A stretch of DNA of 64,000 nucleotides from Escherichia phage phiWec179, in the sequence record LC739533.1; one strand, written 5' to 3'. Below, one piece after another: positions 17,486 to 54,954 of this stretch (positions within the stretch are counted from its first letter, which is position 1; each line of letters opens with the position of its first letter). A program made the position numbers and the translations under genes. The notes below the pieces were generated by a model. It was not told the DNA's origin, made no database searches, and saw only the letters and a program-made list of their open reading frames with translations.

Positions 17486-17722
17486 ATGGCTAAATTTATT
17501 ATGACCGTTTCTATTGATTTTGATGATGAGGACGGAGGCATTAACTTAGGTATTGCTCAGAACCTGGAAGGGGATTTGAACCCGACAGAAGCAGCTATGG
17601 CGGTATTCTTTAAAGATGCCATAACAGCCACAGCAACGCATTCTGCAAATCAAACTGTAGATTACGGTAGCATGGTTCAAGCCTTGGTTGATGCTCAAAA
17701 CGGTGAAGATTGGGATGATTAA
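17486..17722 (+). CDS. hypothetical acidic protein
   Basis: 78-aa ORF, RBS aaggag. Confidence 0.5.
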   Translation: MAKFIMTVSIDFDDEDGGINLGIAQNLEGDLNPTEAAMAVFFKDAITATATHSANQTVDYGSMVQALVDAQNGEDWDD

Positions 17723-17925
17723 TGGCTTACAATTATTATTGCGTTTACGCAAATGAAGCAAAGAAAGGCGACACTGGCACTAATGTCTATGCAGAATCAG
17801 AAATACATGCAAAAGAAATTGGTGCGATCCTTCTGTCACGTTGGACAGGTGGTAACTATTCTGCTGCGGATTTGTTCGCAGAAATGGATGACACCATCCA
17901 AGAAGATACCATCACCACAACCTGA
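17722..17925 (+). CDS. hypothetical protein
   Basis: 67-aa ORF, ATGA-coupled to previous. Confidence 0.5.
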   Translation: MAYNYYCVYANEAKKGDTGTNVYAESEIHAKEIGAILLSRWTGGNYSAADLFAEMDDTIQEDTITTT

Positions 17926-17946
17926 TATTGCTTGAAGTAGTTGGTA

Positions 17947-17977
17947 CTCTCCTTGTTTCGGCAAGGAGGGTATTTTT
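17947..17977 (+). terminator. putative rho-independent terminator
   Basis: CTCTCCTTG/CAAGGAGGG stem (one mismatch) + TATTTTT. Confidence 0.4.
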
Positions 17978-17989
17978 AAGGAGGAAATT

Positions 17990-18181
17990 ATGCAGGAGAA
18001 TGAAGAGATAGTTGTTAAAAAGTTCCCGACACGTACACAGGCAGTCAACTTTGCCTCTGATTTGCTTTTGGATGTGGAAGGAGTTCTCATTAGACATGAA
18101 GGGGATTCCTGGAATGTCTCTTATAATGTAAACAGATCAATTATATATTTAGGAGAAGAGAACTTCTCTCGTATAGAGTGA
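17990..18181 (+). CDS. hypothetical protein
   Basis: 63-aa ORF, RBS aaggagg. Confidence 0.5.
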   Translation: MQENEEIVVKKFPTRTQAVNFASDLLLDVEGVLIRHEGDSWNVSYNVNRSIIYLGEENFSRIE

Positions 18182-30859: not shown

Positions 30860-31146
30860 AGACACCTCCTCTTGTTAGTTACAGAGAGTATAATACCGGA
30901 ACGTTACGATTACAACTACGAAGAACGGGTGATTTTTGATTGATAGGTAGGACTTATCTGAAAGGAATAATTGATAGGGAACGCTGTATTGACTTTTGCG
31001 AAAAAACATGCTACCCTAAACATATGTTTACGAGCGATAGCGAGTAGTGATTTCTATAGTATTATTGCATGTTACTCACGATAGGGAGTAAGCAATGTTA
31101 GTGAGGTAGACAGACTATGATCAACCATCTACCTACTAACTATCTA

Positions 31147-31347
31147 TTACTCAGAGAAGGTACATTCGAGTACAGTCCAGACTAATATTACAGTCCAAGA
31201 TGCTAACAGTATCCTGAAGATAGTCCACCAACTAAACACATCTACCGTAATCCAGTGTCCAGCTACCAGTGATCCTGCTAACCAACCTCCTACAACAGTG
31301 ATAACCCAAAGAATAAAACCTATCAAAGAAAACGTAGCAAGTTTCAT
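31147..31347 (-). CDS. small membrane protein
   Basis: 66 aa, W-rich hydrophobic segments. Confidence 0.5.
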   Translation of the reverse strand: MKLATFSLIGFILWVITVVGGWLAGSLVAGHWITVDVFSWWTIFRILLASWTVILVWTVLECTFSE

Positions 31348-31628
31348 TAGACTTCTCCTCTATAAAGTTTATCTTCTCTTCTAACTTCAATCTTACACTC
31401 TTTGTCTACCACAATCAAGACTGAACATGAGTAATATCCTTCTGCAACAGTCTCGATCTGTTCTTCCAGATCCTTCGTCAATTCCTCTCCCATGAGATAG
31501 AAGGCAAACTTCGTGCAATGTAATAACTCTTCCTTGAAGTTAACCATCTTGTAGATGTTCATCCCAGTCTTATGTTCATCTACTGTCCAACCACTTGATC
31601 GAAGTCTGACTGCTGCGTTATGTCTCAT
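31347..31628 (-). CDS. hypothetical protein
   Basis: 93-aa ORF. Confidence 0.5.
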   Translation of the reverse strand: MRHNAAVRLRSSGWTVDEHKTGMNIYKMVNFKEELLHCTKFAFYLMGEELTKDLEEQIETVAEGYYSCSVLIVVDKECKIEVRREDKLYRGEV

Positions 31629-31768
31629 CGTCCGTTACCATTCAATTGATCACGTAGCTTTTCTGCATCTCGTTTCTGTGGGAACGTGGCAACAGAGACA
31701 TTGAATTCATTAACAACAGAAAAGGACTTGTCCAGGTTTTCACGGATAGTAAAAGGTTTCTTGCTCAT
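31625..31768 (-). CDS. small protein (47 aa)
   Basis: Not in track; RBS ggaggg; ATGA overlaps at both ends. Confidence 0.4.
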   Translation of the reverse strand: MSKKPFTIRENLDKSFSVVNEFNVSVATFPQKRDAEKLRDQLNGNGR

Positions 31769-32118
31769 AATCTCCCTCCATCTTTAAGACGATTTTTAAC
31801 CCAGCGTAGACGATCTGGATCTGTGTGTTGTGAAGCGTTTTCCGAATCCAGTAAATAAGCCTTTCTTCCGAACGGATAGGTTTCACATAACCCTGCTTCA
31901 ATAAACTGATTATACATCTCTTTCATAGTGTTTTCGATTAAATACCAGTTACCTTCTGGAAGGTCTAAATCATACAACCAATACTCAAGATTACCACACA
32001 ACCCTACAGAAGAGCTAAACACGTCTTCCATAACAAGGCCCGTCTCGTCTCCATTTTCAGCCCAAGATAACCAAGCCTGATAAAAATCTAAAAGTAATTT
32101 ACTTGATGCAATCTTCAT
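31765..32118 (-). CDS. family-A paralog (LxFY..WL.W / GLC.NL / PF / H.N..R..WV)
   Basis: LLLDFYQAWLSW..VGLCGNLEYW..TYPF..HTDPDRLRWVKNRL; start at ATG 32118 (RBS ggagag). Confidence 0.6.
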   Translation of the reverse strand: MKIASSKLLLDFYQAWLSWAENGDETGLVMEDVFSSSVGLCGNLEYWLYDLDLPEGNWYLIENTMKEMYNQFIEAGLCETYPFGRKAYLLDSENASQHTDPDRLRWVKNRLKDGGRL

Positions 32119-32120
32119 GC

Positions 32121-32306
32121 TCACTCTCCTACACTTTCTGGTGTGCCATCCCAAGCACCTAAGACTTCTTTCAGGTGTGCACGGGGTTCTTTAAAATACT
32201 CCTCCATTTTATCCAGAAGATCGTCTGTGTTTGGGCTGTATCCCAACATCCCACGTAAAACTCTTTCTTCTTGCAAGACCAACCATCTATGATAGCTTCG
32301 AATCAT
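32121..32306 (-). CDS. hypothetical protein
   Basis: Start at ATG 32306 (RBS ggagg). Confidence 0.45.
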   Translation of the reverse strand: MIRSYHRWLVLQEERVLRGMLGYSPNTDDLLDKMEEYFKEPRAHLKEVLGAWDGTPESVGE

Positions 32307-32721
32307 AATATTCCTCCAAGAGTTTCTCAATTCTCTGAACGGTCTTAGTATCCCAATAAACCTTATTAAAGTCAAGTGTTCCATGTGCATTTCTTTTTGT
32401 TTCGAAGTAATAACCACCTTCCCGCTCCAAGCGATCACGGATCACTTCTATAAGATGATCCTTACCTATCTGCGTCAAACAATAATCATACTCTCCTTTT
32501 AAGAGATCTATAGAAGGTTGACGGTTATCTCCAACCTGGGAAATCTTCCAATTTACCAATGATCCTTGTATACCAACGTCTGTCTGCTTCACAGCGAAGC
32601 CTTTGGCACCCCAGCTACCCAACGTTACCACTAACAGGGCTTCTCCCGTCAGAGAGCGATTAAGCGTGTCGCTTCGGGGTTCACTTAAAGTTGAAAACCA
32701 TTTAAGAATCTTTTTAAACAT
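32287..32721 (-). CDS. hypothetical protein
   Basis: Start at ATG 32721 (RBS gaggag). Confidence 0.55.
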   Translation of the reverse strand: MFKKILKWFSTLSEPRSDTLNRSLTGEALLVVTLGSWGAKGFAVKQTDVGIQGSLVNWKISQVGDNRQPSIDLLKGEYDYCLTQIGKDHLIEVIRDRLEREGGYYFETKRNAHGTLDFNKVYWDTKTVQRIEKLLEEYYDSKLS

Positions 32722-32782
32722 TATATGCTCCTCTCGTTCAACATGCACAAACAATAACACCCTCCAAAGAGGGTGTCAATGA

Positions 32783-33010
32783 TTAATCGATCACAAAAAA
32801 CGTAGCGTTCAAACGTCTGAATGTCGCAGGGCTATATCCATGATCACACTCTTCAATGAACTGATCTGTAGTCTGATCGTAACTATAATACTGATCATTT
32901 TGGAAATGGAAGGACGCACAGAACAAATCATTTCCTACAGTCCACACTGCCACAAAATTCTTACCGAACGGATAACCTTCAGCTACTTTCATTCTCCCTC
33001 CTCTTACCAA
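32783..33010 (-). CDS. hypothetical protein
   Basis: 75-aa ORF. Confidence 0.5.
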   Translation of the reverse strand: MVRGGRMKVAEGYPFGKNFVAVWTVGNDLFCASFHFQNDQYYSYDQTTDQFIEECDHGYSPATFRRLNATFFVID

Positions 33011-33273
33011 GAAACATACATAGAATACACAAAATCATTGCAGTCTGTCGTAAACGTCGCACTGCAACCTTGAGATCTGAATTTATCACAAATCCCGCGT
33101 ACAATCGAAGCTTGTAGTTCTTTACCTTTCGGTAGACCTAAAGCTTTTACTGGGTTCTGAATCGTCGTGCTGTAGTAACCCCCTTCTGCTGCCGTTGTAA
33201 TGAGGATTTCTGCTCGTTTGATATATTCAAAGTTCACAGAGTCAGCCAAAGCGTGTAAAGAATATGCATCCAT
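33004..33273 (-). CDS. hypothetical protein
   Basis: 89-aa ORF. Confidence 0.5.
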   Translation of the reverse strand: MDAYSLHALADSVNFEYIKRAEILITTAAEGGYYSTTIQNPVKALGLPKGKELQASIVRGICDKFRSQGCSATFTTDCNDFVYSMYVSW

Positions 33274-33283
33274 TATAACCTCC

Positions 33284-33619
33284 TCAAGAACGATCGAGTT
33301 TCATTAAAAATACAATCATAGCTGCACGCAGTGGTTTATCGTCTTCACGGGACGGTACACCTTCTGTCTTCGCAAGCCAACCGCGAGGAAAACCATCTTC
33401 CCCTGTTACAGGGCTGATACAAATCCTATGTTTTACTATGATAGCCCAAGCATCTGCTGGATCATTGCAGTAATCATACCAAGTGTAATTGCCGTTGCAG
33501 TCATTCCCCACTGATCGTCCATCTGCATTGTGCGGATAACCTAAAGGCTTGACACCGTGGACTGCTGCAAACACACGCTTGTTGATTTCAAAATCACTCA
33601 TTACTCCATATTCTGTCAT
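33284..33619 (-). CDS. hypothetical protein
   Basis: 111-aa ORF. Confidence 0.55.
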   Translation of the reverse strand: MTEYGVMSDFEINKRVFAAVHGVKPLGYPHNADGRSVGNDCNGNYTWYDYCNDPADAWAIIVKHRICISPVTGEDGFPRGWLAKTEGVPSREDDKPLRAAMIVFLMKLDRS

Positions 33620-33945
33620 GCTTTCTCCTTATCTTTGGATACTGGAAGGATATTGATCATAACAACCCCATCATATCCGTAGGTATCGTTGATTGTAGTT
33701 TCAACTTCACGTATGTCGGCTAAAGATGGAGGCCAATCTGTGAATTGCACATCAATATTACCTGTCCCGATAAAATTACCTTCTTCTGGTCTGTAGTTGT
33801 ATACAAACACAGCATCGTAACGAAACTCCTTCTGTTTGTTACGCTTCTTAAAAGTGCGGTCTAAGGCATAGATGCTTCCTATGACACATACCGCTACAGC
33901 AACAACAACAATGTTAAAATAGAGTTCTTGTAAAATTGCGCTCAT
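33616..33945 (-). CDS. membrane-anchored hypothetical protein
   Basis: N-terminal hydrophobic helix. Confidence 0.55.
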   Translation of the reverse strand: MSAILQELYFNIVVVAVAVCVIGSIYALDRTFKKRNKQKEFRYDAVFVYNYRPEEGNFIGTGNIDVQFTDWPPSLADIREVETTINDTYGYDGVVMINILPVSKDKEKA

Positions 33946-33947
33946 TG

Positions 33948-34277
33948 TTATTTACCCCCTTTCAGTTTTGATTTAACCCATGCCAACCGTTCTTTGTTCA
34001 TATGTTGCGTGCCGTGCTCATAATCCTGCATATAAGCTAAGTCACCAAATGGGTACAAGGTGTCTTGGAAATCTTTGAAAAGCATCTCTGCAAATGCTTC
34101 GTTAACTTCGTCAATTTCTTTTAATGAAAACCCTTGTTCCAGTAACCAGTAAGACAAAGAGTCGCAAAGCCTAACAAGTGTGCTGAAAGGTTTGACATTC
34201 TCTCTTTTCGGAGCCACTTTAGCCCAGGCTAACCATGCCTTAAGAAATTGTTGGATAATCACTTCGTTCTTTGTCAT
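33948..34277 (-). CDS. family-A paralog
   Basis: IQQFLKAWLAW..LYPF..HMNKERLAWVKSKL; start at ATG 34277 (RBS aggag). Confidence 0.55.
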   Translation of the reverse strand: MTKNEVIIQQFLKAWLAWAKVAPKRENVKPFSTLVRLCDSLSYWLLEQGFSLKEIDEVNEAFAEMLFKDFQDTLYPFGDLAYMQDYEHGTQHMNKERLAWVKSKLKGGK

Positions 34278-34285
34278 TTTAGCTC

Positions 34286-34966
34286 CTATTTGATGTTCAG
34301 TTTGTTGAGCAGACGTTGAACCGTATAAGGGTGCCATGTGGTACTGCCACGAACGGTTTCAATTTTCTCTTCAGTAAAGATCTCTGCAATTCGAGTCAGA
34401 GATGCTCCTGCTTTCCTCATTAACGTCACTTTATCACGAAGCTTCTCTGCATACAAGACACTTTTATCATTTTTTCGAGGTTGTTTGTAGTCTTGACGTG
34501 ATTCTTTATACTTAGGGGAAGCAGATCCTAAAAGAACTCCTTTGCTCTTAGCTACTGCCAAACCTTTTTTGATACGATCTGCCATACCGCGAACTTCCTG
34601 TTCGGCGAGAACAGATAAAAGCTGGATAACCATCTTATCCGCATCTGGCATAATGGCGATCTTAACGTCGATCATTTCCAGCAAGATTGCTACCGAGGCG
34701 TTGTTACGACCTAAACGGTCCACTTTAGCTACCAGGAGGGTTGCTCCGGTAGCTTTACACATCTCAACAGCCTTGACAAGTTCTTTACGTTGCTTCCAGT
34801 CACCTTTACCTGAATAGAATTCAGAAAACTCTCCGATCACTTCAGCCTCCGGCACAGACTCCAAGAAGTAACGGATATCGTTCTCCTGACTCTGCATACC
34901 ATACTGGGCTTCGCCTTTCTTCTGTTTGGACAAACGGCTGTAAACAACAAACTTTTTCATGATCAA
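34286..34966 (-). CDS. serine recombinase (resolvase/invertase family)
   Basis: YSRLS..Q catalytic Ser region, LLVAKVDRLGRN, AEQEVRGMADRIKKGLAVAKSKG, C-terminal HTH-like segment. Confidence 0.8.
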   Translation of the reverse strand: MIMKKFVVYSRLSKQKKGEAQYGMQSQENDIRYFLESVPEAEVIGEFSEFYSGKGDWKQRKELVKAVEMCKATGATLLVAKVDRLGRNNASVAILLEMIDVKIAIMPDADKMVIQLLSVLAEQEVRGMADRIKKGLAVAKSKGVLLGSASPKYKESRQDYKQPRKNDKSVLYAEKLRDKVTLMRKAGASLTRIAEIFTEEKIETVRGSTTWHPYTVQRLLNKLNIK

Positions 34967-34970
34967 CTCC

Positions 34971-35177
34971 TCAATCGTTATTAGGCTTCCATTTTACAAA
35001 CTTGAAGCAGTTATTGTCAAGGAATTTATTGGCATCTTTTTCCTGTTTCCAAACGGTGCATTGTTCTTTAAGGGCTATCTGTTCATTCTGCACATCTGAT
35101 ACCACATCAGCAAGGAGGATCAGAAATCCCAAAAAGACCAACATCAATAACAGATTAAAGAAAGTTTGAAAACTCAT
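34971..35177 (-). CDS. small membrane protein
   Basis: Start at ATG 35177 (RBS gggagg); hydrophobic helix. Confidence 0.5.
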   Translation of the reverse strand: MSFQTFFNLLLMLVFLGFLILLADVVSDVQNEQIALKEQCTVWKQEKDANKFLDNNCFKFVKWKPNND

Positions 35178-35428
35178 GCGTCCTCCCATTTGATCCACAG
35201 AATCATTTCTTCAACGTAAACCTCTTTACCTTTGTTATTGATGAAAGTGTATTCTATGAACTCCGCTGTATACTTTTTGTTGTATTGCTCCGCTGCTGGG
35301 ATCGGACACTTTGTCATACGTGTCTCAACCCATTGACGATGAATCGTTGCCTTGTTTTTGGGGTCAAACGGGTGTAAATAGTGTGGTTCCCCACCCTGAC
35401 TTTGCCCCATCTTATTTTTCTTTGCCAT
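35174..35428 (-). CDS. hypothetical protein
   Basis: Start at ATG 35428 (RBS ggagg). Confidence 0.5.
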   Translation of the reverse strand: MAKKNKMGQSQGGEPHYLHPFDPKNKATIHRQWVETRMTKCPIPAAEQYNKKYTAEFIEYTFINNKGKEVYVEEMILWIKWEDA

Positions 35429-35756
35429 GCTGCACCTCCTCCAGACGGTCATACACCCAAGCAAGACGATCGAAGTTTTTGTGTTGGGTGCCGGACTTCT
35501 TCTCAATCCAATAACAAGGAATCCAACCTGACAGATCCCACTCGCCATCGAACGGATAGTTCCATTCTAAACCTTCCGCTTCAAACTGCTCTACCATTTC
35601 ATCAGAAAGGGAAATATACAAATCTTGGTCTTCCCCGCAATACACTTCCACTGCATGACACAAACCGCAAGCTTTGATGTTTTCGTGCGGATCTTGGCCC
35701 ATAGCCTGATCCAACCACCACTCATAAAACTCCAGTAAAGCTTCACTTGATCTCAT
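35412..35756 (-). CDS. family-A paralog
   Basis: LLEFYEWWL..CGLC..YPF..HKNFDRLAWVYDRL; start at ATG 35756. Confidence 0.55.
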   Translation of the reverse strand: MRSSEALLEFYEWWLDQAMGQDPHENIKACGLCHAVEVYCGEDQDLYISLSDEMVEQFEAEGLEWNYPFDGEWDLSGWIPCYWIEKKSGTQHKNFDRLAWVYDRLEEVQHGKEK

Positions 35757-36129
35757 TTTCTTCCCCTCCCCCTTTTCCAATAAGCGGCGAAGCCGCGATC
35801 ATCGACTTATAGACAACTTCGGCTGTTCGGGTTAGCCCCGTCCAGTCCTTCGCTGCCTCCAACATTTCTGGGGTAGGCTCTTTCGGGACCAAGACATACC
35901 CTTCTGGGACACACATCCCACTCTCTTTCTTTTCGGCTTCTTCCGACATAACTTGCCACACTCCATAGCTGCAATTCTCGAACAAACAATAGAGTTCAGA
36001 TCCTTCATCATCCACGACAATGAAACAGTTCTCATCTGCTACTTTGGCATTATAGATCCGACCTATGGTCAAATAGTCTCGGACATTAATAAACTTAGAG
36101 GCAAGAAACTTCACACGAATGTTTTTCAT
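35743..36129 (-). CDS. hypothetical protein
   Basis: 128-aa ORF. Confidence 0.55.
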   Translation of the reverse strand: MKNIRVKFLASKFINVRDYLTIGRIYNAKVADENCFIVVDDEGSELYCLFENCSYGVWQVMSEEAEKKESGMCVPEGYVLVPKEPTPEMLEAAKDWTGLTRTAEVVYKSMIAASPLIGKGGGEENEIK

Positions 36130-45902: not shown

Positions 45903-46133
45903 TTAATGAACAATTTCATATTCGTGAGGAAGGAAAACATAATCTTCCCCTTCACCTGCATCTTCTTCATCCCAGAAGAAACCTGGTATCTCAATCATCT
46001 TCGAAAAGCGCACATGCGCCAACCCACTATACCCTATCTGTGCATTCAGCACAACGGGTAACTCTGCACCAATCAGACCTACATACCCGCAAGCGGTTTC
46101 AATACGAATTTTCATACGTTTTATGTTATGCAT
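45903..46133 (-). CDS. hypothetical protein
   Basis: 76-aa ORF. Confidence 0.5.
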   Translation of the reverse strand: MHNIKRMKIRIETACGYVGLIGAELPVVLNAQIGYSGLAHVRFSKMIEIPGFFWDEEDAGEGEDYVFLPHEYEIVH

Positions 46134-46335
46134 CTTTCATATTCTCCACGAAGTGACGAGCAACAGGATTCCCGTAGAAATATTCATTGATGAAATCGAT
46201 CACACAGGTTTCACTGCCTGTCACAACGGACGGTGCGAAGTTTCGGAACTGCACGAGTACACGACTTGCGTTAGCAAGGGCGTTCACACGATCAGTATTA
46301 GCTAAATACAAGGATACAGTTTTCATATTCGACAT
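46126..46335 (-). CDS. hypothetical protein
   Basis: 69-aa ORF. Confidence 0.5.
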   Translation of the reverse strand: MSNMKTVSLYLANTDRVNALANASRVLVQFRNFAPSVVTGSETCVIDFINEYFYGNPVARHFVENMKDA

Positions 46336-46406
46336 TTCAATCTCCTCATTGGCTATCTGTTATGCGCGGTATTGCGCCTCTCATGCAAACAAGTATACAG
46401 ACATTT

Positions 46407-46775
46407 TTATTCAATGCAAGCATTATTTGCATCTTCGATGCGATCTTTCACCCATTGAAGACGTAACGTGTTGGTATGACACGCCAAGTCTATACACTCT
46501 GAAAGGTAATCCATGCAATCTGCATTGAACGGAAGATTGTAGTCCAGTTTTGCACATGTAAATTGTTTCCTCATTTCGTATTTCAAACTATCCAACAAAC
46601 GATCACGCCATCTTTTATCTTCTTCTCTAATTACCTCACCAACAAAATCATCTACATAATCTACCAGACAACCACACAAGCCACTCGTTGTGCGATTCAT
46701 TGCCGGATGGTTGGCAATCCATGCTTTATAGAATCGTATTAATGTTGCACTGCTCAACGGAATGTTACTTTTCAT
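46407..46775 (-). CDS. family-A paralog (NIPLSS subgroup)
   Basis: MKSNIPLSSATLIRFYKAWIANH..GLCGCL..LPFN..CHTNTLRLQWVKDRI; start at ATG 46775 (RBS gaaggagg). Confidence 0.6.
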   Translation of the reverse strand: MKSNIPLSSATLIRFYKAWIANHPAMNRTTSGLCGCLVDYVDDFVGEVIREEDKRWRDRLLDSLKYEMRKQFTCAKLDYNLPFNADCMDYLSECIDLACHTNTLRLQWVKDRIEDANNACIE

Positions 46776-47130
46776 TATTGCCTCCTTCACAATCCTGGAT
46801 ACGATCTTCTACCCATTGCACACGCAGTCGGTTGAGATGACATTTTCTGTTTTCACATTCTTCCTCGTAGTCGAAGAAGTTGGTATTGAAAGGTGTGGTT
46901 TTAGACAACCCTGCATACATAAACTGTACCAGCATTTCATCAGCTAAAGCTTCACGCATCTCCCAAAACTGATCCACATCGGCACCATGTATCGGACACA
47001 ATACGTCCCATGCAAAATTGCCTAAACATACGCACAAGCCATTCGCTGTGTTCACCAACTCACTACGGTGAGCCATCCAATTCTTATAGAACATCAGAAG
47101 AGTATCACTACTCAAGGGAATATTTTTCAT
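46765..47130 (-). CDS. family-A paralog (NIPLSS subgroup)
   Basis: MKNIPLSSDTLLMFYKNWMAH..GLCVCL..TPFN..CHLNRLRVQWVEDRI. Confidence 0.6.
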   Translation of the reverse strand: MKNIPLSSDTLLMFYKNWMAHRSELVNTANGLCVCLGNFAWDVLCPIHGADVDQFWEMREALADEMLVQFMYAGLSKTTPFNTNFFDYEEECENRKCHLNRLRVQWVEDRIQDCEGGNNEK

Positions 47131-47131
47131 A

Positions 47132-47512
47132 TCAGGCTCCTTTACGATTATGGAAACAATCTTTCACTCGCTCTTGCACCCACTCTACACGAAGCTTGTT
47201 TTCATGCGCTCTGTTGTGGTTATGCTCTTGCACATAGTCTTCGTAGTTCACATTAAAGGGAACACTGACAGACAATCCTGCACAACGAAATTGTTTCTTC
47301 ATTTCTTTTAATGTCGCATCACTTAGGGCACAAAGCTGATTTGCCTGTTCCTCACTGAAGTTACTGTCCCACATCTCATCCCAGATAAAACTATCCAAGC
47401 ATACACATAACCCATGCCTTGTGCGCTCTTTAGTATGATGATCAGCAAGCCAACTTTCATAGAAAGCTAACAACACCGGACTACTCAACGGAACATTTTT
47501 ACTCTCTTGCAT
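47132..47512 (-). CDS. family-A paralog (NIPLSS subgroup)
   Basis: MQESKNVPLSSPVLLAFYESWLADH..GLCVCL..VPFN..AHENKLRVEWVQERV; start at ATG 47512 (RBS gagaggag). Confidence 0.6.
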   Translation of the reverse strand: MQESKNVPLSSPVLLAFYESWLADHHTKERTRHGLCVCLDSFIWDEMWDSNFSEEQANQLCALSDATLKEMKKQFRCAGLSVSVPFNVNYEDYVQEHNHNRAHENKLRVEWVQERVKDCFHNRKGA

Positions 47513-47870
47513 GATAATCTCCTCTCTTGGTTTCATGACAAACATCCTAATTCTCAACGAGGAACATCTTACGATCAATCCTCGGCAATTACAATTCATT
47601 TATCATCGCTTTTCCCTATCAATTATTCTATATATACCTGTTATTTTTGACACCCCCTTTGGTCAAATATTAATCGGCAAAATATCTGGGGGTACTCTAT
47701 AAAATGATGCCCCCTGTTCCTGCAATTTATCGAGGAGAATATCATTCGACTATCATCGGCAAAGAGACAGAAAAGCCTTTGGTAGCAAGGATTTATGGCG
47801 AGTACGTCAGGACTGCTTAACGCGAATTTTTCGGCCCCTCCACTTCTGCGAGCCGGAATCCTCAAATATC

Positions 47871-47902
47871 AATGAGAATAATTATCATTATCATTCGTAT
47901 TC
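47871..47902. repeat. Fur-box-like ATTATC hexamer repeat; left copy of about 31-bp imperfect direct repeat
   Basis: aatgagaataattatcattatcattcgtattc; 28/32 identical to 62407-62438; core matches 19-bp Fur-box consensus as recalled at about 16/19. Confidence 0.5.
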
Positions 47903-48289
47903 AATAACTTAGGCGATCTTTTCCCCTGCTATAAGGTCGGGCCTAACTTAACCATCACTTTTCAAACAATCCTTTATCAATCAACTACTTAACAACCTAA
48001 ACATATGATTACTACGGTGTAAAGGTGCCGCCCATAACAGACTACCTATAAAATAGATGAGAATGATTATTATTCAGACAATTCTTACAACAAATCGACC
48101 AACAAATCAAGAATTTTCTTATTTTTATTCACGTTTAAGAGAACGTGCTCAACATTCCGCTACGCGTAACGGTTCGCCCCCAAAAGATTAGCCTTTGCTT
48201 TCCTGTATATTTATACACTATGTGCAAGGTGTCGCTACACGCTCGCCTTGCCCCGCATAATCCTTCACTGTGCTAATGATTTCATAGTG

Positions 48290-48445
48290 CAACAATAACA
48301 CTTATTATTATATTACGCTTAATTATTCTTACATACAATGCTAATAATAAGCCAGCGTAATTAGTGTAAGCGTAATACGCTTGCAATAATTGCAAGCTAC
48401 ATAATCACAAGAAATAACCATCACCGATGGTTATGATTGTGGGGG
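48290..48445. repeat. cluster of perfect palindromes in ORF-free region
   Basis: aagcgtaatacgctt and cttgcaataattgcaag adjacent; ataaccatcaccgatggttat; later atgataatggttatcat at about 48791. Confidence 0.5.
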
Positions 48446-48539
48446 TGTAGTTGGCTTATTATTAGCTCGCTACGTGTCCGGCGTAGCGTGCTAATGATGA
48501 CTCTATGAATGATTCATTTTGCAATTATTACAGTCTTCA

Positions 48540-48770
48540 CTATTTCGGCAATAGTTATTATTTTAATGGTTTCATTTGTTATCGTTAGTTAGTTGGTTGT
48601 TTTGTCGTGTTATCGTTATCTTGCTTAGTATTCATCATGGTTTGATTGTTTGTCGTTATCAATCATCTTTCTATTATTCCTTTGATTATGATTAGTTTGC
48701 TTATTGTTTTAAGTCGTTAGTTGGTTAGTTGTTGCGAACTGTTATCAACATTATAGTTATGCACTTATAT
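48540..48770. repeat. AT-rich iteron region (GTTATCGTT / TTAGTTGGTT repeats), candidate origin
   Basis: Repeated gttatcgtt, ttagttggtt, TTATCAACA (DnaA-box-like, one mismatch to TTATCCACA); no ORF of 60 aa or more in any frame across 47.6-49.05 kb. Confidence 0.4.
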
Positions 48771-49011
48771 TGCATAGATACGCAAGGGTAGATGATAATG
48801 GTTATCATTGCACTGGAAAGGAAGAAAACAGCCTTTTTCGGTTGTTTGTTGTTGGTTGTTGATCGATTTTAACCGCTCTAAATAGCTCTCTAATAGCCTG
48901 TTGCCCTGGGGTGTATGGTTATTCGTTTAATGGTTGATTAGCTCGATACCGCGATCTATTCAGTTTTGTTCTGTGTCGGTTTTTCATAGGCGGAATCTAT
49001 CAACATTGTTC

Positions 49012-49042
49012 GGGCAAAAAGAAAGGGCGCTTTGTGCGCCCT
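49012..49042 (-). terminator. rho-independent terminator closing the leftward small-gene array
   Basis: AGGGCGC-tttgt-GCGCCCT hairpin with T-tract on minus strand, just downstream of ORF 49057..49476. Confidence 0.5.
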
Positions 49043-49056
49043 TGTTTTGTTGTCAA

Positions 49057-49476
49057 TTATAACGCTTCATAGATTGAGTAGATCCGGTTTGCCAGGTCAT
49101 TACGAAAGCGGAATTTTTCATCACGTTTAATCATCAGATCCTTAAAACCGCATTCTTTCAAGGCTTCATTAACTTTACTGCGGCATACTTTCATATTGTC
49201 CTGCGCGTCACCAATAAACTTATTGCTATGATGCATTGTTTTGATCTCTTCCTCCAGGACCAGGGCAACTACACGGATCGGATCAAGCTGATACGCGGTA
49301 ACATCCATGCGGCATTGTAAACGGCTTTTAACATCGTTTACCGGATACACTGCAACCTCTTCCCCGTCAACGTTCACAATAACCAGCTTACCATCAATTT
49401 CGAAGCCTTTCGCGGCGCTACCGTGGCAAAAAGCGTTATCGAAGGAGTAAGCCGGATTATTTGATTTAATGTTCAT
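49057..49476 (-). CDS. hypothetical protein
   Basis: 139-aa ORF; E. coli-like GC-richer codon usage. Confidence 0.6.
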   Translation of the reverse strand: MNIKSNNPAYSFDNAFCHGSAAKGFEIDGKLVIVNVDGEEVAVYPVNDVKSRLQCRMDVTAYQLDPIRVVALVLEEEIKTMHHSNKFIGDAQDNMKVCRSKVNEALKECGFKDLMIKRDEKFRFRNDLANRIYSIYEAL

Positions 49477-49521
49477 GTTGTTGTCCTTTGTTTCGTTTCG
49501 TTGTTTGCTGCCAGTGAGTTA

Positions 49522-49550
49522 AATATAATATAACGCCGATCCCCTGTCAA
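49522..49550 (-). promoter_or_regulatory. sigma70-type promoter (minus strand) TTGACA-17-TATATT
   Basis: Minus-strand TTGACA at 49550-49545 with AT-rich -10. Confidence 0.45.
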
Positions 49551-49616
49551 TAGGCGATAGCGCATTATTTACATTTCTTTACGTTAAAGGGCGCTTAGTG
49601 CGCCCCTTGTACAATC

Positions 49617-49985
49617 TTACTTTGTGCTGTTGTAAACGTTATCGCGTTCAACCATCAGGGCAAGGCGGATCAGTTGATCAGTTGTATCGCGTAAGCTGTC
49701 AGGCCATGTTTTATTGTTCCAGCTATCTAAATTTGATTGAATATAGGTTTCAATGGCTTGATCCATATTGTCGAACAAGTTTTCCTCCAAGCTCTCGGCT
49801 GTTTCACACTGGAAAGCATCAGCGACACTATTAATCAATAAGCAAGCCAGTAAATCAGCGTTGCGCCAATTTTTACGGATAGTTTCATCTGTCAGATAAC
49901 CAACGAGATTAACCTTTGCGCCAGTGGTGGACGTTGCGATCACTTCTTGCGCTTTTTCAACTGCTTTAATTGCTGATTTGCTCAT
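49617..49985 (-). CDS. hypothetical protein
   Basis: 122-aa ORF. Confidence 0.55.
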   Translation of the reverse strand: MSKSAIKAVEKAQEVIATSTTGAKVNLVGYLTDETIRKNWRNADLLACLLINSVADAFQCETAESLEENLFDNMDQAIETYIQSNLDSWNNKTWPDSLRDTTDQLIRLALMVERDNVYNSTK

Positions 49986-50063
49986 CTTCTTTTCCTCTTT
50001 GTGGGCTTGCTGTATTGCTTGCCCTACGCAATAACTATAAGTTAACAGGGTGTATAAAGCAAG

Positions 50064-50297
50064 CTATTTTTTATAAAATTTTTCTGCTGTGATATTCTTC
50101 CCTGTAGGCTTAACCGCTTGCAAGATCTTATCATGTGCCGAACGTCCAAAGGAATAAGATCCGTAAACGGTAAACCAATAATCCCCGTTCGGTTGAACGG
50201 TTACGGCGGCGTATGGTGTGCCTTTTTCATTATCACCAATAAAGTGTGAAACATTGCCGTTAACGTTCGGTTTAGTGCTTTTAATTTGTTCGATCAT
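50064..50297 (-). CDS. hypothetical protein
   Basis: 77-aa ORF preceded by cassette. Confidence 0.55.
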   Translation of the reverse strand: MIEQIKSTKPNVNGNVSHFIGDNEKGTPYAAVTVQPNGDYWFTVYGSYSFGRSAHDKILQAVKPTGKNITAEKFYKK

Positions 50298-50315
50298 GAT
50301 GTGACTCCTAAATCA

Positions 50316-50374
50316 GGCGGGAAACATTCCCGCCCTACGTGATAAATAATAATATAAGGGTGATCCGGTGTCAA
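50316..50374 (-). promoter_or_regulatory. promoter-leader cassette (TTGACA-17-TATTAT then GGCGGGAA-acat-TTCCCGCC leader hairpin)
   Basis: Read on minus strand; hairpin lies between -10 and RBS. Confidence 0.5.
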
Positions 50375-50548
50375 TAGGTAGAATTGTAAAGATTTGATAG
50401 TTTATCTCTTTGATGTTTTGTTGTTTGATAGGTGTTAGCTATCAATATATAGCGGGGTCGTCCGGTGATTACCTCCCCCGTTGCCAGTGCCGCCCGTTCA
50501 GTAAGCATAACAAAAAACAGGACAAAAACAAGCCCTGTTTTGTAAAGA

Positions 50549-50752
50549 TTAGATGATCTGCATATCCTCCACGATAATTTCTAATTTCCAAACAAGATGA
50601 TCTAAGCTCCCTGATAAAAATGATTCCGATACATAACCGCCATCGGACACCGTAGCAAGGATCTCGCCATTTGCTTGCTCTTTGATTTGAACATCCAGGC
50701 GGTTAGCCTTTGCTTTGTTCAGGACGGCGATCAAGCGGTTAGCTGTAGTCAT
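50549..50752 (-). CDS. hypothetical protein
   Basis: 67-aa ORF. Confidence 0.5.
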   Translation of the reverse strand: MTTANRLIAVLNKAKANRLDVQIKEQANGEILATVSDGGYVSESFLSGSLDHLVWKLEIIVEDMQII

Positions 50753-50774
50753 GGTGTTTTCCTTCCAGTCGTGA

Positions 50775-50830
50775 GCGGCACCATTGCCGCCCTACGTGAT
50801 ACATCTTACACTATCAGATACATTGTGCAA
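50775..50830 (-). promoter_or_regulatory. promoter-leader cassette (TTGCAC-16-TAAGAT then GCGGC-accatt-GCCGC hairpin)
   Basis: Conserved gtgagcggcaccattgccgccctacgtgatacatcttac block. Confidence 0.5.
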
Positions 50831-50836
50831 GCTATT

Positions 50837-51028
50837 TTAGATCTCGTCACCTATATAATCAGATCTGTTTTTCTCTGTCATACGCTTAAGCAATTCTTGC
50901 ATATGGCTTATAGCTTGCAATGTGTCTTCTTCCAGGCTTGAATCGAGATAATCAGGATCATTCTTTACCTTGCTATGGTTGTGATACCGCAACGCTGCTA
51001 ATACCTTTCTAACTTGTTCTGCATTCAT
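50837..51028 (-). CDS. hypothetical protein
   Basis: 63-aa ORF. Confidence 0.5.
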   Translation of the reverse strand: MNAEQVRKVLAALRYHNHSKVKNDPDYLDSSLEEDTLQAISHMQELLKRMTEKNRSDYIGDEI

Positions 51029-51171
51029 TTTTATTACTCCTTAAAACCAGGTGCCAACCGTTTCCAATAAGTCACTGACTACCAGAACAACATTGATTAG
51101 CACATATTTAATCAGGAAGGGGATTAGCGCCAGCGTCGCTACTATGATCCCCATTATGATGATTATTTTTC

Positions 51172-51462
51172 TCATGGTTGGCGGTTTACGTGGGCTTTAC
51201 CGTTTACGGTCATCGGTATGGCCTCAAGGTCTGGATCTTCCTTAAGGTCGCGTGCAAGCTCACCGCACCGGATACCCTCGAATCCGTGGTATTCTGTTTC
51301 CCCGTCCTTAAAAGTTTTAGCGGCAAGGCATAGGCGATAATTAACACCGATCCGGTTTACTGCGTTGATATCGGTTAACGTGATCGATTCCGGCAAATCG
51401 TTAGCCATTACAGGCGCGTTAATACCAACAACCAGGGCAACTACTGCGATCATCTTTTTCAT
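51172..51462 (-). CDS. small secreted protein (signal peptide)
   Basis: MKKMIAVVALVVGINAPVMA N-terminus. Confidence 0.55.
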   Translation of the reverse strand: MKKMIAVVALVVGINAPVMANDLPESITLTDINAVNRIGVNYRLCLAAKTFKDGETEYHGFEGIRCGELARDLKEDPDLEAIPMTVNGKAHVNRQP

Positions 51463-51517
51463 GTGTCTATCCTCTTCCTATTGCGTTTAATGGGGGCGTT
51501 GCCGCCCCGCTTATGGT

Positions 51518-51754
51518 TTATTGCTTGATGTTATGATGAAAGTTATTTTCTTCAACGGCTTTTAAAATAAAAGCCGTGATCGCTTTCGTGTCTACTTGTT
51601 CGAACGTATCAGAATAGCACCAATAATAATCATCCCCTACTTTCGGCGGGTAAACCTGGACAAGGAGATCCCCACCATGTTGATCTATAAGCTCAACATG
51701 TAAGCCGGATGATTCAGCGGTTTTAACGGCGTTTAATACTGTTGCAATACTCAT
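51518..51754 (-). CDS. hypothetical protein
   Basis: 78-aa ORF. Confidence 0.5.
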   Translation of the reverse strand: MSIATVLNAVKTAESSGLHVELIDQHGGDLLVQVYPPKVGDDYYWCYSDTFEQVDTKAITAFILKAVEENNFHHNIKQ

Positions 51755-51798
51755 AATCTTTTCCTTTCTGATGTGGGGCGTTGCCGCCCCTTTGTTGA

Positions 51799-52098
51799 TT
51801 AGATCGCTGTTTCCAGTAGTTCGGCTAACGTCTTACCGCCTGATAGTTGGTCTAATGTTTGCTCTTCTGGCAAGAAATTAGCTGATATTAAACCGACTTG
51901 ATTCCCTTTGTGCCAGTTAGCCTGGCGGGTGATTCCATCCTTTAAGGATTTTACCGCCATTGTGCAACCGTCGCCAAATGATTCATTTTTATGGTCCATC
52001 ACTTCATAAGCGCCCAGCTTGCTGCTGTTAGGCACCATTAACGCGAATACATCACCAACAACCAGTTTTTCTACGGTAACAATAGCGATAGTTTCCAT
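51799..52098 (-). CDS. hypothetical protein
   Basis: 99-aa ORF preceded by cassette. Confidence 0.55.
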   Translation of the reverse strand: METIAIVTVEKLVVGDVFALMVPNSSKLGAYEVMDHKNESFGDGCTMAVKSLKDGITRQANWHKGNQVGLISANFLPEEQTLDQLSGGKTLAELLETAI

Positions 52099-52116
52099 TT
52101 TGTTTTCCTCATTATC

Positions 52117-52173
52117 GGCGGCACCATTGCCGCCCTACGTGGTAAATATTATCACACTGGCGATCTGTGTCAA
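52117..52173 (-). promoter_or_regulatory. promoter-leader cassette (TTGACA-16-TAATAT then GGCGGC-accatt-GCCGCC hairpin)
   Basis: Perfect -35 and perfect 6-bp stem. Confidence 0.55.
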
Positions 52174-52179
52174 TACTTT

Positions 52180-52566
52180 TTATTCAATATAAATCAAATT
52201 ATCTTCACCAATGTAAGCCGACACGTCCGGCATGAATTTAGCGGCATTTGTTAGGCGGTTGGCTGTGTTAGTTGTGTATATTTCAGGGCGATCCCAAAAT
52301 CCTACGCCGTGACCGTTACGGGTAAAATGTAAATCATTGCCGATCTGGTTGGCTGTAGCGCCGTCGCTCATTGCCTCAGAGATAGCGGCAAGATTAGCAT
52401 TAATAAAGGCTGTTACATCTTGGGCGATTCGTTCATCCGCACCAGGAGAAAAATCATAATCGCCTAAGTTATCAATAAAATCACCTTCGTGATCCCTGGC
52501 TGATTCAGCAAAAATAAAAGCCTCTTTATAACCGTTGATGATTTCAATAATGATTTCTGTTTTCAT
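52180..52566 (-). CDS. hypothetical protein
   Basis: 128-aa ORF. Confidence 0.6.
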   Translation of the reverse strand: MKTEIIIEIINGYKEAFIFAESARDHEGDFIDNLGDYDFSPGADERIAQDVTAFINANLAAISEAMSDGATANQIGNDLHFTRNGHGVGFWDRPEIYTTNTANRLTNAAKFMPDVSAYIGEDNLIYIE

Positions 52567-52787
52567 GCTGTACGCTCGACAATAATAATAGTTTGCGGGA
52601 TCTCGTTTTCTACTACTAACAAGGCTTTTTTCTGTGTGATAGATATTTTAACACGTTGTAAAGTAGCGGTAAAGTCTTTCATTTCGTTATGCGCCGACTT
52701 GCTGCAATGCCAGATCTCAGGCTTACCGACTTGTAAGCCGCGTAAAAATTCTGTTTTGCCTGTTTTGTTCGTGATCATCTGTTTCAC
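52563..52787 (-). CDS. hypothetical protein
   Basis: 74-aa ORF. Confidence 0.5.
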   Translation of the reverse strand: MKQMITNKTGKTEFLRGLQVGKPEIWHCSKSAHNEMKDFTATLQRVKISITQKKALLVVENEIPQTIIIVERTA

Positions 52788-52788
52788 C

Positions 52789-52893
52789 TTAACCGATACC
52801 GTGGGAAGATAGGATCATATTAGCCATAGTTGCAACCACTCCAACCGATAACGCCAGGCCAACCACTGCAACCGTGAAAATTTTCTCTAACAT
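52789..52893 (-). CDS. small hydrophobic peptide (34 aa)
   Basis: Not in track; RBS gaggg; single hydrophobic helix. Confidence 0.3.
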   Translation of the reverse strand: MLEKIFTVAVVGLALSVGVVATMANMILSSHGIG

Positions 52894-52956
52894 GATGCTA
52901 CCCTCATTAATGGGCGTTGCCTTATTGCCCCGCCCTACAAGATGAATACTACGCGC

Positions 52957-53139
52957 TTATTTTGCTGTTGTCAACAACGGGCGAAAAAACTTTTTGATCT
53001 GGCTTGCTGTTAGGCGCATATCTGCTTTGAGCGTTGCCAGGCGATAAGCTTTACCCTTAACCAGTTTATGGTGTCCGGTGCCGTTGCCGATGATAACATC
53101 AATTTCACACAATACGCGGGAAGCATCAATCTTTTTCAT
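52957..53139 (-). CDS. hypothetical protein
   Basis: 60-aa ORF. Confidence 0.45.
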   Translation of the reverse strand: MKKIDASRVLCEIDVIIGNGTGHHKLVKGKAYRLATLKADMRLTASQIKKFFRPLLTTAK

Positions 53140-53221
53140 GTTGTTACCTTTCGTGTTATGGGGCGCTTGTCGCCCCCTGTCTGATAAAGATAATCCCTTT
53201 CGGGATATCTGTCAACTATTT

Positions 53222-53407
53222 TTATTGTACGGTGTGGCGATCGCTGTATTCAGCGTAAAACTCACATCCATCGTCACGGCTATCAAGTTTAACGATGTAC
53301 CCGCTATTCCAACGTTCAACTGATACTACCGGATAATACTTCCCGTTAAGGATATTTTTCACCAGGTCGCCTTTTACCAGTTCTTTCGTTTTCTTATAAG
53401 TAGTCAT
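53222..53407 (-). CDS. hypothetical protein
   Basis: Start at ATG 53407 just after the leader cassette. Confidence 0.5.
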   Translation of the reverse strand: MTTYKKTKELVKGDLVKNILNGKYYPVVSVERWNSGYIVKLDSRDDGCEFYAEYSDRHTVQ

Positions 53408-53606
53408 GATGTTTTCTCTTCTGTTTTGCGGTGGACCGTTCCGCCGCCCTATGTGGTAAACTATACGCGCCAACGTTCCAGGCGTCAAGCATATTTTTAA
53501 AATTATTTTCTACAACGTAAAACGCCCCAGCATAAGCCAGGGCGCACTAATTAAATCAGGTAGGGGGATTGCATTGCCTTACACCTTTTAGGCTGTTAGC
53601 TGGCGA

Positions 53607-53834
53607 TTAATAGCGTAGGATGTTTACACGCTCATCCCGCCCCAAGATATCCTCATATCTGTTTCCCCTTCCTTCGTACCAGATGATCACGGTATGAGGA
53701 TCAAACGGATTGTTTTCGATAGCCGTTACCTTGCAGAAGTCATAAGACGGGAACGGATAAACGCCAACCTGTAAACGCGCCCGATCTCCTGGGCGAATGG
53801 TAGCGGCACGATCTGCAATGATATTGTTATACAT
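53607..53834 (-). CDS. hypothetical protein
   Basis: 75-aa ORF. Confidence 0.5.
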   Translation of the reverse strand: MYNNIIADRAATIRPGDRARLQVGVYPFPSYDFCKVTAIENNPFDPHTVIIWYEGRGNRYEDILGRDERVNILRY

Positions 53835-53958
53835 GGTGCACCCCCTTAATATTTTTCTTTTTCTTTGCTTCCGTTCGTCTAAGGTTACGGCTTGACTTGT
53901 TACGCAAGGCGCTCAAATCATCATAACCTTTAAAAGGTTGCATATTGTTCGGATTCAT
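53827..53958 (-). CDS. small basic protein
   Basis: Start at ATG 53958 (RBS aagggg). Confidence 0.4.
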   Translation of the reverse strand: MNPNNMQPFKGYDDLSALRNKSSRNLRRTEAKKKKNIKGVHHV

Positions 53959-53968
53959 GCTACGCCCC

Positions 53969-54247
53969 TTAACGGTTATAGATATTGTGGATAGTGATAA
54001 AGGCGCTACGGTCATAAGCTGCCAAATCGGGATTGATCCAAGTGTTATCTAATAGTGTTTCAAGGATAATAGACTCATCATGAATAGCATCATAGAAATC
54101 AGGGTTAATAATGGTGTCAATGTCGCTTTCTGTTAACTCTACATTCAGCTTGCAAACCGCTTGCAAATCGGCTTCACGCTTCCAATCTTGCAGATTAGTA
54201 GTCAGAATGTTGGTGATCTCTTCGGTAGATAATTTGGTGATGGTCAT
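53969..54247 (-). CDS. hypothetical protein
   Basis: 92-aa ORF preceded by cassette. Confidence 0.55.
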   Translation of the reverse strand: MTITKLSTEEITNILTTNLQDWKREADLQAVCKLNVELTESDIDTIINPDFYDAIHDESIILETLLDNTWINPDLAAYDRSAFITIHNIYNR

Positions 54248-54265
54248 GATATTTTCTCTCTGTTA

Positions 54266-54323
54266 GGCGGGGCGCTTGTCGCCCCTATGTGATACATCTT
54301 ATCAGGTTGATTCAGCTTGTCAA
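54266..54323 (-). promoter_or_regulatory. promoter-leader cassette (TTGACA/TAAGAT then GGGGCG-cttgt-CGCCCC hairpin variant)
   Basis: ctctctgttaggcggggcgcttgtcgcccctatgtgatacatctta block. Confidence 0.5.
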
Positions 54324-54329
54324 TACTTT

Positions 54330-54536
54330 TTAACGTGTCGCGTAAATAATATTACTTGCCGGACTACTGCAAACCAGGTTAAGCGGCTTGCTGTTATATT
54401 GCATCTTGTCGGCTTGTTTGCTTGCTGCGATGATTCCATCTATTACACGTTGCAAACTAACCTTTACCGCCTTTTTTGCCAACCGTTGACGCTTTACCAG
54501 TGCCTGGATCTTTTTCTTGTCTGCGTTGCTTAACAT
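54330..54536 (-). CDS. hypothetical protein
   Basis: 68-aa ORF. Confidence 0.5.
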   Translation of the reverse strand: MLSNADKKKIQALVKRQRLAKKAVKVSLQRVIDGIIAASKQADKMQYNSKPLNLVCSSPASNIIYATR

Positions 54537-54545
54537 GGTGCGCCC

Positions 54546-54725: not shown

Positions 54726-54735
54726 GGTGTGCACC

Positions 54736-54855: not shown

Positions 54856-54954
54856 TGTGTTATCCTCTCGCTTGCTTTGAGAACTATTCCCGCCGCCCTA
54901 TGAATTAAATATACACTATCCCAAAATGATTGCAAGCCTTTTTCTAAATTATTT

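Follow-up and report, generated by a model that had tools for sequence, protein, structure and literature searches.

The 64,000-nucleotide (nt) stretch of Escherichia phage phiWec179 analysed here (sequence record LC739533.1; hereafter the window) encodes on its minus strand a small serine recombinase whose catalytic centre is intact and which is predicted to be active. Its catalytic domain is joined to a C-terminal DNA-binding domain that appears to be of the large serine recombinase type, and sequence comparisons indicate that the gene is a long-standing, vertically inherited component of the Stephanstirmvirinae and of related large virulent myoviruses. That selection should so strongly maintain a site-specific recombinase throughout a virulent subfamily poses a modest but genuine puzzle. 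We lean, tentatively and somewhat short of calling it probable, to the reading that the enzyme is a resolvase acting on replicating DNA that is multimeric or terminally redundant, through a single dyad site in each genome.

The recombinase and its two domains

The minus-strand open reading frame (ORF) spans 34286..34966, the 34966 end being an in-frame TTG upstream of an ATG. The ATG at 34960, which gives a product of 224 amino acids (aa), is the likely true start and is preceded by GAGGAG at 34967-34972. The features of the gene are these:

34286..34960, minus strand: serine recombinase coding sequence (CDS), 224 aa plus stop, from the ORF listing, an annotated CDS in phages phiWec186 and PsgM04F, and a Pfam Resolvase match (E = 6e-17)
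34967..34972, minus strand: predicted ribosome-binding site (RBS) GAGGAG, 6 nt ahead of the ATG and overlapping the stop codon of the upstream 68-aa gene
34991..35020, minus strand: sigma-70-like promoter, TTGACA-18-TAAAAT (11/12 consensus positions), ~30 nt upstream of the start codon and within the upstream ORF
34523..34960, minus strand: catalytic domain and long E-helix, residues 1-146, 95% identical to the ESCO13/phAPEC8-type protein
34928..34930, minus strand: codon of the predicted nucleophile Ser11 in the motif Y7-x-R9-x-S11, invariant in 25/25 aligned homologues
34289..34522, minus strand: C-terminal DNA-binding domain, residues 147-224 (78 residues), four helices

A sigma-70-like promoter of its own may serve the gene, which lies in a block of early-like genes; the element listed is a consensus match only, in a region where the total of such matches equals the shuffled expectation.

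A sequence-only reading of the window had recognized a resolvase/invertase-type serine recombinase from the motifs YSRLS and VDRLGRN, and both are indeed part of the catalytic core. The Pfam entry PF00239 (Resolvase) matches residues 7-144 with 62.5 bits against a cut-off of 23.3, and is likewise matched by all 25 homologues; the PHROG 125 'DNA invertase' profile gives E = 2e-32. The VVYSRLS motif holds Y7, R9 and S11, the last being equivalent, by motif, to S10 of gamma-delta resolvase. With phmmer, residues 52-148 align to the Tn3 and gamma-delta resolvases, and the VDRLGRN motif (D81, R82 and R85) pairs with LDRLGRD of both. All these residues, along with R58, E122 and R129, are invariant among the 25 homologues, at identities down to 29%. 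An AlphaFold model made from the same homologues (pLDDT 90) contains the mixed alpha/beta catalytic fold followed by the long E-helix, with a long helix at 109-139. Its best Foldseek matches in the PDB are Sin, gamma-delta resolvase and large serine integrases, with a probability of 1.0 to Sin, gamma-delta resolvase and TP901-1. Judged by sequence and modelled fold together, identity as a serine recombinase is far beyond chance.

The Tn3, gamma-delta and Sin resolvases provide the best sequence and fold matches and share with the phage protein its catalytic domain, E-helix and approximate size. Identity to them is just ~20-25%, however, and the phage protein differs in lacking the HTH_7 domain, while its gene is accompanied by neither a three-subsite res nor a transposase. 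HTH_7, the DNA-binding domain of resolvases and invertases, matches neither the phage protein nor any of the 25 homologues. The C-terminal domain carries the conserved motif IA..LN..G..T.RG..W....VQRL. Among the 25 family members PF07508 ('Recombinase') is found in 15 and HTH_62 ('Recombinase-like HTH') in four; in the phage protein itself the PF07508 match is sub-threshold and covers just the first ~40 positions of the model. PF13408 is absent, and zinc ribbon and coiled coil were not found in the 224-aa protein. By these sequence criteria the C-terminal domain is of the large serine recombinase type and not HTH_7, and the whole protein resembles a large serine recombinase that ends after the first helix-turn-helix of its recombinase domain. 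The comparison with phiC31, Bxb1, A118/LI and TP901-1 is instructive: their first helix-turn-helix is similar to the phage C-terminal domain and they are reached by full-length Foldseek alignments, but at ~450-700 aa they are more than twice as long, the phage protein having nothing corresponding to the rest of the recombinase domain, the zinc ribbon or the coiled coil. No NCBIfam model comes near its cut-off (the YneB-family resolvase-like NF049883 scores 34 bits against 175), and a PADLOC search gave no match.

Distribution, selection and exchange between lineages

Over the stretch that was tested, the window matches Escherichia phages phiWec181 and phiWec186 (154.5 kb; Phapecoctavirus, Stephanstirmvirinae) exactly. 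The recombinase gene is already known, being a standard annotated feature of Stephanstirmvirinae genomes. The sequence-only reading was correct that the phage has no integrase but went too far in calling the gene unexpected in a lytic gene set. Existing names vary: 'hypothetical protein' in phiWec181 and phiWec186, 'DNA invertase' in the 94%-identical PsgM04F and in phi92, 'resolvase' in ESCO13 and 'serine recombinase' in other records. In the literature we found passing, speculative mentions and no functional study. The authors describing SKA64 speculate that the gene is a resolvase 'keeping concatemers as single genomes' (PMC10282059). The ICP1 'Adi' paper was considered as a source and rejected, as it deals with a different gene.

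With tblastn the gene was found in 162 phage records, 106 of them Escherichia-named. Conserved segments of the genome match 106-107 Escherichia-named records, and because the two counts are equal the gene appears to be essentially universal in the subfamily. Identity falls from ~74% in phAPEC8-type Phapecoctavirus to ~55% in Justusliebigvirus (phi92), ~50% in Klebsiella relatives and 30-39% in Vibrio and Shewanella myoviruses. Purifying selection on the gene is strong, the ratio of non-synonymous to synonymous substitution rates (dN/dS) ranging from 0.01 to 0.08. In the comparison with ESCO13 the catalytic domain has a ratio of 0.035, at a dS of 1.3, where synonymous sites approach saturation; in that with PsgM04F the ratios are 0.010 for the catalytic and 0.076 for the C-terminal domain. 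In phage Schickermooser (NC_048196.1, 11300-11952) nine small deletions, totalling 19 nt and confined to the first 233 nt of the gene, lead to multiple frameshifts and loss of the catalytic-serine region, the intact remainder being annotated as a 128-aa ORF.

A homologue of 251 aa is present in ICP1 2017_DRC_82 (3507-4262 of the examined stretch), where the catalytic domain alone is matched, at 35% identity. In the 2017 DRC isolates it lies in a block without earlier GP numbers between GP30 and GP41, which is an accessory region.

The neighbours of the recombinase are small phage genes (NinX-like, DUF7202 and PHROG 2510), with no transposase or transposon ends among them and no flanking repeats. 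Elsewhere the gene has a different setting. In phi92, Klebsiella phage phi1_175008 and Shewanella phage 1/40 it lies in a block with the order PhoH, HslV, (methyltransferase, MTase), recombinase and, further on, a DprA-like gene. That block is collinear with 12.9-21.4 kb of the window, where the recombinase slot is empty. In tblastx comparisons, the phi92 locus at 4722-4928 corresponds to window 17707-17913 and the next gene to 18196 onward, while the phi92 invertase itself corresponds to 34954-34463. The Phapecoctavirus copy thus lies 17 kb from the phi92-type position and on the opposite strand, and these comparisons indicate that the gene has been relocated from that position. Two features of the window record the rearrangements:

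17925..17990, plus strand: the 'empty' ancestral recombinase position, between the MTase and small genes and the DprA-like block, from annotations and tblastx collinearity
31133..34527, no strand: block without nucleotide similarity to ESCO13/phAPEC8-type phages, from a blastn map, its right edge inside the recombinase gene

The right edge of the second falls at the junction of the catalytic and DNA-binding domains. While the catalytic domain is 95% identical to that of the ESCO13/phAPEC8-type protein, the C-terminal domain is only 37% identical, which makes it no closer than that of phi92 (39%). As judged from these alignments, the DNA-binding domain has been exchanged between lineages together with 3.4 kb downstream. 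A comparison of the two edges (31133 and 34527) for a common motif gave none above the shuffled null; since the edges share no sequence, ordinary mosaic exchange is likely, and that is what the swap looks like. As the adjacent DNA was swapped along with the domain, phiWec-type and phAPEC8-type phages probably differ in site specificity.

Candidate roles of the recombinase

The closest non-phage relatives that we found are recombinases of small plasmids from Roseobacter and Synechococcus (e.g. pMaD11 and pP18_i). These share the two-domain architecture over its full length, C-terminal domain included (33-39% identity, 97-99% query coverage), and are carried by non-mobilizable plasmids of 4.9-7.3 kb with little content beyond RepA and a ParA-like protein. 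Replication, partition and multimer resolution form the classic gene set of small plasmids. Three Roseobacter plasmids each contain exactly one 36-bp imperfect palindrome beside the recombinase gene, and a similar dyad is seen in a Synechococcus plasmid:

Roseobacter plasmids, 4307-4342, 2281-2316 and 4134-4169: dyad TGTATAA-N22-TTATACA, single copy in each
Synechococcus plasmid, 4796-4830: dyad TGTAACA-N21-TGTTACA, just upstream of the recombinase

In the Sulfitobacter plasmid the dyad lies 30 nt upstream of the recombinase ORF (4199-4846), an ORF that is not in the gene table. The plasmid dyads have the shape expected of a simple crossover site, occurring once per replicon, and probably serve an uncharacterised family of plasmid resolvases in that capacity.

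By analogy, the plasmid homologues with their single dyads favour a resolvase-type role for the phage enzyme. Resolution of replication intermediates was one of three roles that the sequence-only reading had offered, and it remains the most plausible of them, these full-length homologues on tiny plasmids with a single dyad lending it indirect support. In such a mechanism a recombinase dimer would bind one simple dyad-symmetric site, present as a single copy per genome. On multimeric, concatemeric or terminally redundant replicating DNA there would be two of these sites in direct repeat; once they were synapsed, all four strands would be cut via phosphoserine links and exchanged by subunit rotation. 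The outcome would be the reduction of multimers to unit circles or, early in infection, the cyclization of incoming DNA. The proposed mode, deletion between sites in direct repeat, is that of the Tn3, gamma-delta and Sin resolvases, and a single site per replicon would explain the failure to find a repeated site within one copy of the phage genome. A functional analogy, and no more than that, can be drawn with Cre-lox of phage P1, where one site per genome serves to cyclize terminally redundant DNA and to resolve dimers. There too a phage encodes a site-specific recombinase with a single site per genome, but Cre belongs to the tyrosine recombinases and its phage is temperate. The lineage-swapped DNA-binding domain and the single-dyad plasmid homologues make the question of role testable.

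Several points weigh against a resolvase. The spacer between the gene and the upstream ORF is just 10 nt, no clustered dyads or three-subsite res occur within +/-2.5 kb of the gene, and dyad scans, both local and genome-wide, gave only chance-level or disqualified matches. No credible equivalent of the single 36-bp plasmid dyad was found in the phage; the plasmid-type dyad motifs are absent from its DNA, but its own site may have another sequence. The function of the plasmid homologues is itself derived from plasmid context, not from experiment. Reduction of concatemers to monomers would oppose headful packaging, so that a resolvase role would have to be early or limited; cyclization requires the site to be inside the terminal redundancy, which in a permuted genome is true for some virions only. 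Finally, the Schickermooser frameshifts, if real, may mean that the gene is dispensable in the laboratory.

Individual candidates for the phage site were considered and rejected. A geometry-guided scan of the genome returned five dyad matches where about one was expected; one of the five is a terminator, and 48358-48392 was called twice. The latter dyad, in a 1.5-kb non-coding gap, is kept in phage WPEC6 despite a different DNA-binding domain there and is part of a structured element with compensatory changes (see below). At 33038-33067 lies the best local dyad; it does not rise above chance level, and in PsgM04F, whose DNA-binding domain is the same, it is degraded. A local motif near the 3' end of the gene, AGCATCTCTGCA, simply reflects Ala-Glu-x-Leu codons read in reverse complement. 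In Vibrio phage 1.063.O the 229-nt 'gap' that precedes the gene turned out to hold a promoter, a terminator and an unannotated small ORF instead of a res site. Fur-box-like palindromes, AATGAGAAnAATTCTCATT, at 62355-62466 and 47870-48074 were dismissed as a res-like cluster since they are 19-21 bp long, with an odd-length centre, and operator-like.

The main rival explanation, which we regard as unlikely, is that the enzyme acts on DNA other than that of the phage, recombining or cleaving sites on the host chromosome, a prophage or a satellite (e.g. the att-like sites of rival elements) in host takeover or inter-element conflict. It would account for the absence of a site in the phage, and enzymes with the large-serine-recombinase-type domain can join two sites that differ from each other, an arrangement to which repeat searches are blind. 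Bacterial homologues occur as a second recombinase in integrase-bearing elements, examples being a P4-like island of Aeromonas, where the neighbour is a large serine integrase, and a prophage of Methylobacterium that encodes its own tyrosine integrase. A DNA-binding domain exchanged between lineages would suit changing targets, and the ICP1 homologue sits in an accessory block of a few isolates. However, the host target itself is conjecture and PADLOC offers no match. The hosts span Escherichia, Klebsiella, Vibrio and Shewanella, so that a conserved host target is unlikely, and the same architecture on minimal plasmids suggests maintenance in cis. A more specific version, less likely again, pictures a core, catalytically intact 'mini large-serine-recombinase' of strictly virulent myoviruses which, through its lineage-exchanged DNA-binding module, targets att-like sites on host-resident mobile elements (prophages, satellites or defence islands), or else drives cassette exchange in the hyper-mosaic early region, leaving the phage's own genome alone. 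Were this true, a lytic phage would be using a site-specific recombinase as a weapon or as a generator of diversity.

It is quite improbable that the gene is a selfish or decaying mobile element, a leftover or self-propagating cassette without benefit to the phage. The different loci in Phapecoctavirus and phi92-type phages, the mosaic junction inside the gene, its frameshifted state in Schickermooser and its accessory position in ICP1 are all in keeping with such an origin. Against it stand the presence of the gene in essentially all genomes of the subfamily, the strong purifying selection (dN/dS 0.035 at a dS of 1.3, where synonymous sites are near saturation), the invariance of all the catalytic residues and the lack of flanking repeats or transposon ends. 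The suggestion in the sequence-only reading that the gene could be the remnant of a mobile cassette is refuted by its near-universal presence, the dN/dS range of 0.01-0.08 and the invariant catalytic residues.

Very little probability attaches to an integron-like shuffling of small genes, in which the enzyme would excise and insert them by way of the ~75-nt, directly repeated promoter/hairpin cassettes at 50.7-61.4 kb of the window. There are at least 11 direct copies of the cassette ahead of tiny genes, and this region is the most mosaic part of the genome among relatives. The anatomy of promoter, 5' hairpin and RBS nevertheless accounts for the conservation of the cassette, and the hairpin core is without the dyad geometry around a central dinucleotide. 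Furthermore, the cassette (>=80% identity) is common to phiWec-, phAPEC8- and phi92-type phages, whose DNA-binding domains are just 37-39% identical, and partial copies are found in phages naswa, slur16 and A51.2. These three probably lie outside the recombinase-bearing group, because the Escherichia-named gene count equals the subfamily count. On these grounds, i.e. sharing between phages with different DNA-binding domains and partial copies probably beyond the group, the cassettes were rejected as recombination sites.

The idea of a DNA invertase, flipping a phage segment between inverted sites as an expression or tail-fibre switch in the manner of Gin in Mu or Cin in P1, fares equally poorly. 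It has in its favour the names given by PHROG 125 and several GenBank records, as well as the fact that the protein is a small, phage-encoded serine recombinase like Hin, Gin, Cin and Pin. Unlike these, it has no HTH_7 domain, inverted crossover sites, invertible segment or orientation polymorphism among relatives. When the window and the complete 154.5-kb genome were each compared with themselves, palindromic terminators were the only inverted pairs, which bears out the statement in the sequence-only reading that no cognate inverted-repeat sites were visible. More generally, repeat searches for crossover sites yielded just the promoter/hairpin cassette family, terminators and a 148-bp terminal overlap. 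Orientation was then compared using seven query segments, together covering the whole 154 kb with the tail-fibre genes included, against all phage records. In ~45 distinct Phapecoctavirus genomes each segment lies on one consistent strand at collinear positions and, outside the repeat-rich 46-64 kb segment, at a single place per record among the matches listed, except for matches split by record ends. Since a flip-flop segment would be expected in both orientations in such a sample, inversion is not supported, and neither, by these sequences, is an association of the gene with any invertible segment. With no paired sites in the genome and no orientation differences among relatives genome-wide, the inversion proposed in the sequence-only reading fails, as far as sequence data can show, the refuting condition that this reading had set for it.

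The sole discordant record is WPEC6 (PV763039.1). Its apparent inversion was rejected: the rearranged blocks are joined via a 6-kb patchwork of 155-nt units, in both orientations and overlapping by 77 nt, which has perfect self-palindromes and still includes the normal junction. We consider WPEC6 a misassembly, this pattern being the signature of bubble nodes from a de Bruijn graph (2k+1, k=77) that were joined up as a scaffold. The anomalies of this public 'complete genome', seen especially at 143-149 kb, comprise self-palindromes of up to 304 nt, a 328-nt terminal repeat, scrambled blocks and many ORF calls of 90-150 nt. Its sister records WPEC1, WPEC2 and WPEC4 (155-161 kb) may have the same scaffolding problem.

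The weakest proposal, a cryptic integrase letting the phage integrate or persist in its host, can draw on the relationship of the DNA-binding domain to that of large serine integrases, but is scarcely credible for a protein of just 224 aa without zinc-ribbon or coiled-coil domains, in phages treated as strictly lytic in published descriptions (PMC10282059), and with window 12001-37000 (25 kb, gene included) finding no match in the chromosomes or plasmids of 5,426 complete E. coli genomes. An association of the gene with integration is thus not supported by these sequences. This has a practical side, as a recombinase gene is often taken in phage-therapy screens to point to lysogeny: that of the Stephanstirmvirinae is conserved, is not an integrase gene and has no prophage copy in any of those 5,426 genomes, which is of use where phAPEC8-like and phi92-like candidates are concerned.

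Further features of the window

The minus-strand cassettes mentioned above lie at 50764-61351, where at least 11 direct copies of ~75 nt stand ahead of tiny early genes. Each has the order TTGACA-N17-TAAGAT, a GC-rich hairpin GGGCGGCAATGGTGCCGC and then an RBS, resembling the promoter/stem-loop cassettes of T4-type phages. The cassette is common to phAPEC8-type and phi92-type phages, and the phages with partial copies (naswa, slur16 and A51.2), which we take to belong to the genus Vequintavirus, have genomes of ~137-141 kb. Window 46001-64000 aligns with LC739535.1 in eight pieces at 98.1% identity and, between 50.8 and 56.4 kb, differs from it by an indel of ~111 nt; the window is thus not byte-identical to phiWec181/186 and derives from a closely related but separate genome or assembly.

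The non-coding gap at 47512-49058 contains, at 48349-48500, a predicted multibranch structure closed by GCTAATAATAAGCCA/TGGCTTATTATTAGC. When the fold (plus strand, -83 kcal/mol) is compared between phiWec186 and WPEC6, its 70 pairs show four compensatory and five one-sided changes, with none broken. It has no Rfam match and is a candidate for a new structured RNA or, alternatively, for a DNA structure at an origin or pac site.

Three perfect palindromes of 19-21 bp, AATGAGAAnAATTCTCATT, follow one another at intervals of 51 and 40 bp (62355-62375, 62406-62426 and 62446-62466) in a divergent non-coding region, with weaker copies at 47870-47890 and 48055-48074. They agree with the core of the E. 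coli Fur box at 13/16 positions, and may be operators for Fur or for a phage repressor. Just downstream is a 62-nt direct repeat (62478-62539 and 62617-62678; 84% identity).

Paralogous small proteins of PHROG 2510 flank the recombinase on both sides (31765-32154, 33948-34277 and 35412-35780, all on the minus strand), sharing the motif W..W...YPFG...GTQH..RL.WV. Further copies are possible near 37710, 41810 and 45257, as hinted by a 37-nt repeat. The DUF7202 gene at 35174-35428 (minus strand; E = 2e-34) has no counterpart at the equivalent position in ESCO13, against which it forms an insertion of 250 nt. The intergenic region 30935-31133, which borders the swapped block on its left, is 83% identical to ESCO13 and includes a fully conserved 34-nt stretch, CCTAAACATATGTTTACGAGCGATAGCGAGTAGT. 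GATAGG/GATAGC motifs recur in it, and its plus strand, which has no annotated gene, bears a promoter-like TTGACT box.

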